From a virus (taxonomy: Duplodnaviria > Heunggongvirae > Uroviricota > Caudoviricetes): a stretch of DNA of 4,305 nucleotides. Each line of letters opens with the position of its first letter. The first letter of the stretch is position 1. The DNA lies in the IMG/VR virus record IMGVR_UViG_2582580934_000008, positions 1 through 4,305 of that record; one strand, given 5' to 3'. Of this stretch, positions 1,063 through 1,508 are shown in pieces. The position numbers were made by a program, and so were the translations under genes. A model generated the notes under the pieces. The model ran no database searches, was not told where the DNA came from, and saw nothing but the letters and a program-made list of their open reading frames with translations.

Positions 1063-1404
1063 TCAGCCAACATTGCGGCCTGATCGGGGTGATTTTTGGG
1101 TAATACCGATTGAAACCTGATCGCCCTCCGACTGAATAGATCCATCAAGAGAGAGAGCCGGAGCAATCTGCCCGGCGACAGGTAGCGTCTTATCTTTTAT
1201 TAGCCACAGCATGTATTTTTCAAAGCGATCGACTTGCAGAACCGCCTCAACGATTTTTGCTCTAGCGTTCTTTTGCCCCGATTCGTAATTCCTTATGGTT
1301 GCCAAAGACAACCCAGTAATATCCGCAAACTGCTTTTGTGTTAACCCTTCCGCCTTACGTATCTGACGTAACTTTTTTGCATAGTCTATTGACAAGATAA
1401 CCAT
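1063..1404 (-). CDS. C: P2 C-type immunity repressor (113 aa)
   Basis: Minus-strand ORF with LTQKQFADITGLSLATIRNYESG and FEKYMLWL...GQIAPAL segments that match recalled P2 C repressor (99 aa). Start taken at the second in-frame ATG (complement of 1402-1404), preceded by AGAGG (complement of 1416-1420); the track's longer version starts with 18 extra codons running into the promoter region. Lies between int and a divergent cox-like gene, the P2 synteny. Confidence 0.85.
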   Translation of the reverse strand: MVILSIDYAKKLRQIRKAEGLTQKQFADITGLSLATIRNYESGQKNARAKIVEAVLQVDRFEKYMLWLIKDKTLPVAGQIAPALSLDGSIQSEGDQVSIGITQKSPRSGRNVG

Positions 1405-1415
1405 TTGAGTATTAA
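1389..1415 (+). promoter_or_regulatory. Candidate rightward early promoter (Pe-like): -35 TTGACA 1389-1394, -10 TATTAA 1410-1415
   Basis: Perfect -35 hexamer on the plus strand; best -10 is TATTAA with a suboptimal 15-bp spacer (ATTAAC at 16 bp is the alternative). Orientation and position fit the early promoter driving cox in P2-like phages. Not experimentally verifiable from sequence. Confidence 0.4.
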
Positions 1416-1449
1416 CCTCTCGCACAAAGATAACCGTTTGATTATCTTT
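1393..1449. promoter_or_regulatory. Operator-like repeat cluster: direct repeats CAAGATAACC (1393-1402) and AAAGATAACC (1426-1435), plus inverted partner TTATCTTT (1442-1449)
   Basis: Two 8-bp identical direct repeats AGATAACC, centre-to-centre 33 bp, flank the candidate Pe -10. AAAGATAA (1426-1433) and TTATCTTT (1442-1449) form an inverted repeat with an 8-bp spacer that overlaps the candidate Pc -10. A partial copy GGATAACA (1500-1507) overlaps the cox-like RBS. P2 C is known to bind direct repeats flanking the Pe -10; assigning these particular repeats as the operator is inference. Confidence 0.45.
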
Positions 1450-1472
1450 ACAAACCAAAACAAACCATCACA
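1441..1472 (-). promoter_or_regulatory. Candidate leftward repressor promoter (Pc-like): -10 GATAAT on minus strand (plus coords 1441-1446), weak -35 (TGATGG or TTGTGA, ~1464-1472)
   Basis: Minus strand reads ...ttgtgatggtttgttttggtttgtaaaGATAATcaaacgg... upstream of the C start. The -10-like hexamer is good but the -35 is poor or has an 18-20 bp spacer. The implied start site would overlap the Pe transcript by roughly 10-15 nt (face-to-face, as described for P2). Confidence 0.25.
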
Positions 1473-1508
1473 AGGCGCGACAAGCGCACCAACGCAAGAG
1501 GATAACAA

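Follow-up and report, generated by a model that had tools for sequence, protein, structure and literature searches.

The window, i.e., the whole stretch of 4,305 nucleotides analysed here, comes from a P88-like prophage of the P2 family in E. coli. Among 5426 complete E. coli genomes about 284 carry this prophage, those of the ST131 strains JJ1886 and 4993 included. The genes are ordered as int (1–1008, minus strand), the repressor gene C (1063–1404, minus strand) and the divergent cox (1509–2030, plus strand), and the 104 nt between C and cox are inside the range of about 100–150 nt that is expected of a P2-type C/Cox switch. The features of the region are the following:

1063–1404, minus strand: C-type immunity repressor gene, 113 aa, with the start codon ATG at 1404–1402.
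1150–1449, no strand: immunity cassette, which holds the C gene for its first 85 or so residues together with O1, the Pe −10 and O2, delimited by comparison with the UTI89 prophage.
1389–1394, plus strand: −35 hexamer TTGACA of the early promoter Pe, a perfect consensus present in every relative retrieved through cox.
1394–1415, no strand: predicted operator O1, with a good left arm AAGATAACC (1394–1402), a 4-bp spacer ATTT and a degenerate right arm GAGTATTAA.
1413–1418, plus strand: preferred (inferred) Pe −10 TAACCT, 18 bp from TTGACA.
1416–1419, minus strand: GAGG, the Shine-Dalgarno sequence of C, facing the Pe −10 on the other strand; in immunity types A, B and C it was read directly 11 nt ahead of the ATG.
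1426–1449, no strand: predicted operator O2, the palindrome AAAGATAACC-GTTT-GATTATCTTT.
1441–1450, minus strand: candidate −10 zone of the leftward promoter Pc, TAAAGA or AAAGAT, with GATAAT at 1446–1441.
1450–1483, plus strand: four ACAA boxes starting at 1450, 1460, 1470 and 1480 (10-bp phasing), candidate Cox boxes.
1468–1473, minus strand: weak candidate Pc −35 TTGTGA, 17–18 bp from the candidate −10 zone.
1498–1506, plus strand: cox ribosome-binding site GAGGATAAC, of the form GGAT(A)(A/G)C in 26 of 26 right modules, whatever the immunity type.
1509–2030, plus strand: long Cox-family gene, 173 aa, Pfam Phage_Cox, annotated in RefSeq as Cox family DNA-binding protein.

Residues 9–89 of C match the structures of P2 C (2L49/2XCJ; E=1.1e-14), and the protein carries the Pfam HTH_3 domain and contains the conserved GQIAPAL motif; its counterpart in phage vB_EcoM-569R5 is annotated as immunity repressor GpC. 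The identity of C amounts to about 51% with WPhi C (over 87 residues), about 35% with P2 C and 73% with the repressor of the UTI89 prophage. The rightward gene, the first of the early operon, matches Phage_Cox over residues 58–129 with 29.7 bits (cut-off 27.5), and its product, which has about double the length of P2 Cox, is possibly one of the larger 'group 2' Cox proteins (PMC3448106). The Pfam and PADLOC scans of the small downstream open reading frames found DUF4761 and DUF4754 alone. A reading of the sequence alone, which preceded this analysis (the sequence-only reading), had proposed a switch of the P2 type, and this is borne out by the similarity of the repressor to the P2 C structure 2XCJ/2L49 (E=1e-14) and by the Phage_Cox match of the rightward gene. 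The stretch 1389–1508 is very probably the promoter and operator spacer of the P2-type (C/Cox) lysis-lysogeny switch of a P88-like prophage, where C on two operators 33 bp apart would shut off Pe. Beyond the point of the palindrome described below, the region is an ordinary and well-understood kind of phage switch.

The −35 hexamer of Pe stands beside the start codon of C, an arrangement shared with P2 and WPhi, and the position of the C ATG, with GAGG 11 nt upstream, is kept across immunity types A, B and C. The early promoter had been read as TTGACA (1389–1394) with TATTAA (1410–1415); both hexamers are present, but TATTAA as the −10 would leave a 15-bp spacer and TAACCT, at 18 bp, scores best. 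The usual promoter spacer is 16–18 bp. By simple position-weight scoring TTGACA-18 bp-TAnnnT is the best plus-strand promoter in 12 of 12 representatives, and an 18-bp spacer followed by TAnnnT is also found in Chuche, P884B11 and Shae_phiSM. The −10 is poor either way (TAACCT matches the consensus at only 3/6 positions, TATTAA at 4/6 but with the 15-bp spacer), which is why a consensus promoter scan with 16–18 bp spacers over 1000–2100 reported no promoter in the C–cox spacer. TAACCT with an 18-bp spacer is considered more likely to be the early −10 than TATTAA with 15 bp. The first repeat sits between −35 and −10, so that the repeats flank the −10 only, and not both hexamers as had been described.

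The repeats themselves were described correctly. Two direct copies of AAGATAACC are found at 1394–1402 and 1427–1435, 33 bp apart, and include the repeat noted earlier, AGATAACC (1395–1402 and 1428–1435, 33 bp from start to start); the direct match is longer than first stated, since AAGATAACCATTTGAGTAT (1394–1412) and AAGATAACCGTTTGATTAT (1427–1445) are identical at 17 of 19 positions. The inverted copy is likewise in place, TTATCTTT at 1442–1449 being inverted with respect to AAAGATAA at 1426–1433, and the inverted arm 1440–1449 turns the second repeat copy into a palindrome. The half-sites of P2-type switches are non-palindromic, whereas O2 has the form 10+4+10, with 9/10 pairs matching in the window, while the palindrome of the majority variant is perfect (10/10). 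O1 overlaps the Pe spacer, the Pe −10 and the first C codons. When 1389–1508 was shuffled with dinucleotides kept, the 17/19 direct match was reached in 0 of 1000 shuffles and the 9/10 dyad with 10-nt arms in 7 of 1000, and chance is no explanation for the repeats. A 6/7 dyad of the 7+4+7 form in the window spacer alone was reached in 350 of 2000 shuffles and is not significant singly; the case for the palindrome therefore rests on the 10-nt arms and on conservation across immunity types.

The same three positions hold a different half-site in each of three heteroimmune types: GATAACC in type A, to which the window belongs, CTTCACC in type B, that of the UTI89 prophage, and GTGTCGT in type C, that of JNEC-KY177. 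Their diversity was supplied by a scan of viral contigs, the scan of species-representative genomes with Cox having given one locus only. Across 28 distinct spacers of the three types the best 7+4+7 dyad is located at offset 38–40 from the −35, and its left arm recurs at offset 6–7, i.e., 32–34 bp upstream; the dyad of type C is only 5/7. At the same offset from the −35, the left arm of O1 is swapped for GTTCACC in type B and for GTGTCGA in type C, and the core hexamers of these two types occur at the three positions only within about 2.5 kb. The arms of O2 are kept and the 4 bp between them drift: in type B the arms are invariant around six different spacers, and two type A loci (L037 and L040) show the compensatory double change GATACTC....GAGTATC. 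Dyads of the same geometry stand right after the −35 in the related phages Chuche, P884B11 and Shae_phiSM. The exact window operator is present in 7 of the 284 genomes, and strain O139:H1 W13-16 has this very variant; about 262 have a form with three mismatches, which was read at the GATAAT position in L001, L051, L015 and the IMG/VR loci sharing its spacer.

The comparison with the UTI89 prophage, made in 30-nt windows, delimits the exchanged DNA. Identity is 100% at 760–1119 and 97% at 1120–1149, drops to 37–87% across the approximately 300 bp of 1150–1449, and is 93–100% at 1450–1749 (93% at 1450–1479, 97% at 1540–1569 and 100% elsewhere); the right end of the divergent block coincides exactly with the right edge of the palindrome. 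The part of C that varies with the sites is the N-terminal, helix-turn-helix-bearing portion only, and its recognition helix (helix 3) has the sequence LSLATIRN in type A, VSVGTIGN in type B and IPVNTQRY in type C. This natural exchange of a cassette is the strongest piece of evidence. That the repeats behave as repressor operators is supported by their changing together with the N-terminal region of the repressor in otherwise identical heteroimmune relatives. Cox and the compared 250 bp at the 3′ end of int (window 760–1008) are 100% identical to those of the UTI89 prophage and the repeats are wholly different, hence neither Cox nor integrase can be the specificity partner. An extra operator copy within C, AAGACAACC at 1305–1313, has one mismatch and was taken as chance, there being no such additional copy in types B and C. 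Further GATAAC motifs occur on the cox ribosome-binding site, at 1535–1540 (minus strand) and at 960–965 and 2794–2799 (plus strand). The first two, which the comparison with type B covered, were rejected as operators as both lie in DNA identical to type B, and the other two are regarded as chance. The partial repeat copy reported earlier on the cox ribosome-binding site does exist as GGATAAC at 1500–1506, but it belongs to DNA common to all three immunity types and does not change with the repressor.

The proposed alignment with P2, WPhi and related switches gave a shared layout with different half-sites. WPhi has 10-bp half-sites 34 bp apart that flank the Pe −10, and the distance is 26 bp in P2 Hy dis and 22 bp in P2 (PMC1904268, PMC1904263). 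The direct half-sites at Pe, which also flank the −10, are at 33 bp within this family range of 22–34 bp, and the spacing is not the departure from the family that it had been taken for. Since the half-site spacing of WPhi can be shortened with repression retained (PMC1904263), spacing does not set specificity. WPhi resembles the window in its homologous C, in TTGACA abutting the C start codon, in half-site 1 within the Pe spacer and half-site 2 past the −10, and in a spacing of about three helical turns (34 bp vs. 33 bp; PMC1904268, PMC1904263). It differs in its half-site (TATTGGTGAC vs. AAGATAACC here), in an O2 that has no inverted partner (the 6/7 dyad at WPhi O1 is not significant alone), in a spacer of 152 nt with transcripts overlapping by 82 nt (the spacer here being 104 nt) and in a Cox of 91 aa instead of 173 aa. 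P2 shares the C family (E=1e-14 to 2XCJ), the gene order, the logic of face-to-face promoters and operators flanking the Pe −10, but has 8-bp half-sites 22 bp apart, no palindrome and a Pe spacer of 17 bp, and its Pc is mapped, with a transcript overlap of 35 nt (PMC1904263), whereas Pc is represented here by weak candidates.

Another close system is the UTI89 prophage PhiECO5, tentatively assigned to 'immunity class IX' (PMC3448106). Its flanks are identical to those of the window (the compared int part, the C-terminal tail of C, the ACAA boxes and cox) and its operator layout is the same; its repressor is 73% identical with another recognition helix, and its half-site is CTTCACC vs. GATAACC, which implies a different immunity specificity. 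Members of one immunity class share a C protein of at least 95% identity and the same operator sequence (PMC3448106). The window is outside class III of WPhi, its C being about 51% identical and its half-site being AAGATAACC against TATTGGTGAC, and outside 'class IX' of PhiECO5, with 73% identity and GATAACC against CTTCACC. The suggestion of a distinct immunity specificity holds with respect to P2, WPhi and the UTI89 prophage.

No strong Pc conserved in position emerged from the position-weight scan, which returned three weak candidates only: TTGTGA-17/18-TAAAGA/AAAGAT, TCGGCA-18-TATCCT adjoining the cox ATG, and TTGTAA-15-TATCTT. Every type has weak −10 candidates, at an offset conserved near 60, and TTGTGA is not conserved in all variants of the right module, TTATGA and TCATGA also occurring. 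The leftward GATAAT put forward in the sequence-only reading is present (ATTATC at 1441–1446 on the plus strand) but specific to this variant, which has a G-to-A change at 1441: the majority-form loci that were read have GGTTATC at this spot, i.e., GATAAC on the minus strand, and types B and C have no equivalent. The phasing of the ACAA boxes is unique in the window and was reached in 0 of 200 shuffles; among 26 distinct right modules box positions 1–4 are conserved and positions 8–10 vary, and one locus (L032) has an extra 10-bp ACAA unit. The cox-boxes of P2 start every 10–11 bases and overlap Pc (PMC3936717), and the ACAA boxes are probably Cox sites repressing Pc.

Next to the observed repeats, homology, cassette swap and sites changing with the repressor, we infer the following on how C binds and in what stoichiometry, on where the transcripts start and on what Cox does. 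C, read leftward from 1404, would shut off the rightward Pe (TTGACA at 1389–1394, most likely with the −10 at 1413–1418) by occupying both operators, of which O1 (1394–1415) fills the Pe spacer and −10, and O2 (1426–1449) covers the predicted start and the first transcribed bases. O2 is a true palindrome with arms of 7–10 bp, a 4-bp spacer and arm centres about 11 bp apart; a symmetric C dimer could sit on it like a conventional helix-turn-helix repressor on a palindrome, and would then bring a second dimer to O1, the weaker site, on the same helix face, the left arms being about three turns apart. Cox on the ACAA boxes (1450–1483) would repress Pc. The crystal structure of P2 C shows a symmetric dimer fit for two consecutive major grooves, much like palindrome binders; the dimer can be superimposed on P22 c2, with the recognition helices lying 26 Å from each other, and C.Esp1396I places one dimer on each of the repeated palindromes that it binds (PMC2995052). 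The distance of about 11 bp between the arm centres of O2 matches the geometry of P22 c2 and C.Esp1396I, a likeness in geometry only, with weak PDB matches on the side of sequence.

In the published view, C-family repressors recognise non-palindromic direct repeats (PMC2995052), so the inverted arm could be irrelevant to C binding. A strict P2/WPhi arrangement, in which only the two direct copies of AAGATAACC (1394 and 1427) are read, by one helix of each C dimer, and the arm 1440–1449 has no role, would follow the rule published for all characterised C proteins (PMC1904268, PMC2995052), and agrees with a direct repeat that runs past the arm in the window (17/19) and with an O1 that is kept in every variant despite its degenerate right arm. 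It is unlikely, given that three heteroimmune types share the offset of the inverted arm, that the arm changes along with the half-site, that it is retained despite spacer drift, with a compensatory double change in L037 and L040, and that Chuche, P884B11 and Shae_phiSM also have such dyads right after the −35. The compensatory changes fit an RNA hairpin equally well as a DNA palindrome, and the palindrome is predicted to fold into one: −12.2 kcal/mol (z = −5.7) on the plus strand of the majority type A, −12.5 kcal/mol in type B, and −9.8 kcal/mol on the minus and −4.6 kcal/mol on the plus strand of the window. It is nevertheless very unlikely that its main role is that of a hairpin acting on RNA stability or translation, either from the 5′ end of the early transcript or from the leader of the C transcript, and not that of a protein site, because this leaves unexplained the third, unpaired arm copy at O1, 32–34 bp away in every type, and the swap of the arms together with the DNA-binding part of the repressor; there is also no U-run after the stem on either strand. 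The hairpin and the protein-site roles are not mutually exclusive.

The exact promoter map of the sequence-only reading, with Pe as TTGACA-15 bp-TATTAA, Pc with GATAAT at 1446–1441 and transcripts overlapping by about 12 nt, has in its favour that both hexamers exist, TATTAA matching 4/6 of the consensus, and that every type has a weak Pc-like signal whose conserved offset lies within 3–4 nt of GATAAT. The map is improbable all the same: its 15-bp spacer is outside the usual 16–18 bp and the consensus scan reports no promoter, the 18-bp alternative keeps its position in every type and in another three P88-like phages, the three-mismatch operator form prevails with about 262 of 284 genomes and has, in its loci that were read, GATAAC without the key final T, and a −35 usable with GATAAT is missing, TTGTGA as the nearest one being 21 bp away. 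Finally, the repeats could be sites of another protein (Cox, integrase or a host factor), as regulatory regions of the P2 type contain repeated sites for both Cox and integrase (PMC3936717, PMC3448106). This is hardly conceivable when Cox and the compared int part (760–1008) are shared in full with the UTI89 prophage and the repeats are not, and host factors would not change with the cassette.

On the reading preferred here, with C on O1 and on a palindromic O2, the second operator would be what sets this switch apart. A search of the literature for P2-type C repressors with palindromic operators found none, subscription-only papers being outside its reach; the comparison suggests that a palindromic second operator is new within a known switch system, and that a 33-bp spacing is not (34 bp in WPhi). 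The P2 C family is the textbook example of symmetric helix-turn-helix dimers that read non-palindromic direct repeats (PMC2995052). It is quite possible, although we stop short of calling it probable, that P88-like C repressors bind as symmetric dimers to 7+4+7 palindromes, that the direct repeats of P2, WPhi and P2 Hy dis are surviving arms whose second arms have decayed, and that the cassette of about 300 bp (1150–1449) is a self-contained, swappable immunity module. If true, such decay would explain why the crystal structure of P2 C looks like that of a palindrome binder. This type and its two sister types, set in otherwise identical DNA, offer ready-made isogenic repressor/operator pairs, which can test whether the direct-repeat recognition of the family derives from ordinary palindrome recognition. 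The predicted operators and the immunity cassette are herewith defined for a prophage found in about 5% of complete E. coli genomes, which helps to predict superinfection immunity among P2-family prophages.

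The region retains the gene order of a P2-type regulatory switch:

1-1008, minus strand: tyrosine integrase (int), part of the P2-type regulatory region
1063-1404, minus strand: 113-aa helix-turn-helix protein (the repressor C), matching P2 C structures
1509-2030, plus strand: 173-aa Cox-family protein with a Phage_Cox domain

This order, together with the match of the 113-aa protein to the P2 C repressor (2L49/2XCJ, E=1.1e-14 over residues 9-89), bears out the P2-type switch that was proposed in the sequence-only reading. By tblastn the repressor is ~51% identical to WPhi C and ~35% to P2 C. 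Three deposited Peduoviridae phages (vB_EcoM-569R5, vB_EcoM-705R2 and a P88-like ST131 prophage) are ~96-97% DNA-identical to the window and annotate an integrase, an immunity repressor GpC and Cox, and P88-like (Xuanwuvirus) phages share the downstream genes. The switch region was found in 324 of 5426 complete E. coli genomes, chromosomal in every case, and the operator stretch itself in 284 of the 5426. The Cox protein is about twice as long as P2 Cox; the Phage_Cox domain spans residues 58-129 only, and the first ~57 residues (from window 1509-1680) are acidic and of low complexity, e.g., DDEHEENKKKRSYKK. The closest phage records account for only 76% of the window and lack positions 2040-3027, a stretch that looks like a variable cargo slot. 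None of its four ORFs was matched in Pfam and PADLOC scans:

2041-2247: putative membrane protein, 68 aa
2259-2405: basic ORF, 48 aa
2355-2792, minus strand: 146-aa ORF
2791-3000: 69-aa ORF

All sequence elements listed in the sequence-only reading were found where it placed them or at most one base away, and the direct repeat proved longer than it had described: AAGATAACCATTTGAGTAT (1394-1412) and AAGATAACCGTTTGATTAT (1427-1445), 33 bp apart, agree at 17 of 19 positions, which none of 1000 dinucleotide shuffles of 1389-1508 attains. The inverted partner proposed for the second repeat is real as well, since AAAGATAACC (1426-1435) pairs with GATTATCTTT (1440-1449) at 9 of 10 positions across a 4-bp spacer, a dyad attained by only 7/1000 shuffles. 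The two proposed operators are O1 (1394-1415) and O2 (1426-1449). The repeats do flank the early −10; they do not bracket the −35 as well, because the first one lies between −35 and −10.

The window carries a minority form of this operator. Its exact 66-nt operator stretch occurs in 7 of the 284 genomes, and a further 262 fall in the 95-99% band, where the sampled rows (95.5%) correspond to three mismatches; the differences lie at 1436, 1441 and 1454. The ST131 representative and phage 569R5, both read directly, contain a perfect palindrome, AAAGATAACC-TTTT-GGTTATCTTT, as do the IMG/VR loci that share their spacer. In the window a G-to-A change at 1441 costs the palindrome one pair and gives rise to a minus-strand GATAAT.

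Cox-anchored retrieval yielded 36 further loci, giving with the earlier ones 28 distinct spacers. In all 28, TTGACA begins 38-40 bp away from the best 7+4+7 dyad, whose left arm is repeated 32-34 bp upstream, directly after the −35. The dyads differ between three immunity types:

Type A (window): GATAACC-N4-GGTTATC
Type B (UTI89 prophage): CTTCACC-N4-GGTGAAG
Type C (strain JNEC-KY177): GTGTCGT-AAT(T/C)-TCGACAT, 5/7 only

Within a type the arms are constant and the 4-bp spacer drifts (GTTT, ATTT, TTTT, TTTC, GTAC, GTAT, GTGC and GCAC in type A; ACAT, GCAT, ACAC, ACAA, ACAG and TTGG in type B). In two type A variants (L037 and L040) both arms are altered together, to GATACTC....GAGTATC. At O1, the upstream copy, the left arm is good and the right arm, which overlaps the Pe −10, is degenerate (2-5/7). 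Types B and C have no further copy of their core hexamers within the 2.5-kb loci. The predicted recognition helix also differs by type: LSLATIRN (A), VSVGTIGN (B) and IPVNTQRY (C). Other P88-like phages likewise place a dyad of this geometry directly after the −35, namely Chuche (TTTCTC-ATAT-GAGAAA), P884B11 (ATGCC-ATATCG-GGCAT, two copies) and Shae_phiSM (GATCA-TATG-TGATC).

The −35 of the rightward early promoter Pe, TTGACA, is perfect and invariant among cox-anchored relatives. Candidate promoters were scored by a simple position-weight scheme, its weights approximating the consensus frequencies in published compilations of E. coli promoters, and the scores are accordingly indicative only. 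The best plus-strand candidate in 12/12 representatives was TTGACA, 18 bp, TAnnnT. The corresponding −10 is TAACCT (1413-1418) in the window; types B and C have TATCCT and TAAAAT, respectively. Chuche (TATACT), P884B11 (TATCCT) and Shae_phiSM (TAAACT) can be read with the same 18-bp spacer as well. We therefore prefer 1413-1418 as the putative −10 over the overlapping TATTAA (1410-1415) chosen previously, which lies 15 bp from TTGACA and was not reported as a promoter by a consensus scan allowing 16-18 bp spacers. A −10 at 1413-1418 would put the transcript start near 1425-1426, on the left boundary of O2. The −10 bases read on the opposite strand as GAGG (1419..1416), the conserved ribosome-binding site of C, located 11 nt upstream of its ATG in types A, B and C. 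Since the first 4-5 codons of C lie within the −35 and the O1 left arm, the N-terminus of the protein changes with the operator (MVILS in A, MVNMS in B, MNSTLS in C). Window 1389-1419 is thus very densely coding, the −10 region TAACCTC being the reverse complement of GAGGTTA at the C ribosome-binding site.

For the leftward repressor promoter, Pc, the position-weight scan gave nothing convincing. Neither the majority variant nor types B and C contain the previously assigned −10, GATAAT, and no −35 is suitably spaced from it. The scan left three weak candidates:

TTGTGA (1473..1468), 17-18 bp, TAAAGA or AAAGAT (1450..1444)
TCGGCA (1528..1523), 18 bp, TATCCT (1504..1499)
TTGTAA, 15 bp, TATCTT (1432..1427)

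The position of the first is conserved in all types and overlaps the O2 right arm and the first of the ACAA boxes described below; the second adjoins the cox start codon, like the mapped Pc of WPhi.

In some E. coli genomes the match to the query was confined to its right part, and the loci of these genomes were fetched and compared. The UTI89 prophage, PhiECO5 of tentative immunity class IX (PMC3448106), is 100% identical to the window at 760-1119, 97% at 1120-1149 and 93-100% per 30-nt window (most 100%) at 1450-1749, whereas at 1150-1449 identity falls to 37-87%. This divergent block codes for repressor residues ~1-85, helix-turn-helix included, and holds O1, the Pe −10 and O2; its right end is the exact right edge of the O2 palindrome. 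Its edges are sharp, with 100% identical DNA flanking both sides. The ~300-bp block looks like a recent immunity-cassette exchange between otherwise identical prophages. Because cox and the compared part of int (760-1008) are identical in both while the repeats are wholly different, no protein but the repressor changes along with the repeats. The third type (strains JNEC-KY177 and N51) has the same right-hand spacer and a related cox.

To the right of O2, ACAA recurs at 1450, 1460, 1470 and 1480, a phased pattern unique in the window and attained in 0/200 shuffles. Among 26 distinct right modules (the spacer half from 1450 toward cox) the boxes hardly vary at positions 1-4 (A 101, C 82, A 100, A 101 of 104 boxes) and differ freely at positions 8-10; one locus (L032) has an extra 10-bp unit, five boxes in total. 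In P2 the cox-boxes overlap Pc and follow one another at intervals of 10-11 bases (PMC3936717), and the Apl sites of phage 186 are also spaced by one helical turn (PMC7498355). As the window and the UTI89 prophage demonstrate, the boxes move with cox, not with the repressor cassette, and those at 1450-1483 are candidate Cox sites. One window difference from the majority form turns the first box from ACAAGCC to ACAAACC. In L001, a locus with the majority-form operator, positions 480-499, just past the left end of the window and after the int stop, read ACAAATTAAC ACAAATTATA, two ACAAA boxes 10 bp apart, which would fit a role of Cox in excision, being on the att side of int; another phased ACAA match lies at L001 3228-3261. 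The GGATAAC on the cox ribosome-binding site, previously regarded as a partial repeat copy, belongs to the shared module and is kept in every immunity type, hence it is not an operator of the window's repressor.

P2-family C proteins, ~100 aa long, bind a pair of direct half-sites at Pe, with spacings of 22, 26 and 34 bp for P2, P2 Hy dis and WPhi, respectively; in P2 and WPhi the pair flanks the −10 (PMC1904268). In WPhi, shortening to 2.5 or 2 helical turns is tolerated in vivo (PMC1904263). The 33-bp spacing, once taken as a departure from P2 and a possible mark of distinct immunity, therefore repeats the WPhi layout and is no novelty, and immunity is not defined by spacing. The seven immunity classes known by 2010 all appear to recognize non-palindromic direct repeats, which is puzzling as the P2 C dimer is symmetric and P22 c2-like, with recognition helices on consecutive major grooves (PMC2995052). 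The palindromic O2 departs from this rule, and a literature search of incomplete coverage found no description of palindromic operators for the P2-type C family. On structural grounds, a 7+4+7 geometry with arm centres 11 bp apart would be expected as the target of a P2 C-like symmetric dimer. The experimentally defined O1 half-site of WPhi (L002 1764-1781) lies within a 6/7 dyad of the same geometry, AGTAACC-TATT-GGTGACT, which is not significant alone (attained in 444/2000 shuffles); WPhi O2 has no inverted partner, unlike O2 of the window.

It is possible that a strict direct-repeat model holds and that the inverted arm of O2 is irrelevant to C binding, but such a model must account for the conservation of this arm and for its changing along with the half-site. 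The palindrome can also fold as an RNA hairpin (predicted energy −12.2 kcal/mol in the majority variant; in the window, −4.6 kcal/mol on one strand and −9.8 kcal/mol on the other); this, however, leaves unexplained both the unpaired third copy at O1 and the linkage to the DNA-binding part of the repressor. The cassette swap rules out Cox and integrase as binders of the repeats, since the repeats changed in it and cox and the compared int part did not.

The general interpretation of the sequence-only reading is right and its observation is confirmed; three of its assignments (Pe −10, Pc −10 and the ribosome-binding-site copy) are probably wrong. The functions of the switch region are here inferred from sequence. 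What the comparison adds to the WPhi-like spacing already known is evidence suggesting that the P88-like lineage uses a palindromic main operator with a half-degenerate second one, and that both are packaged with the repressor N-terminal domain in a swappable ~300-bp cassette.
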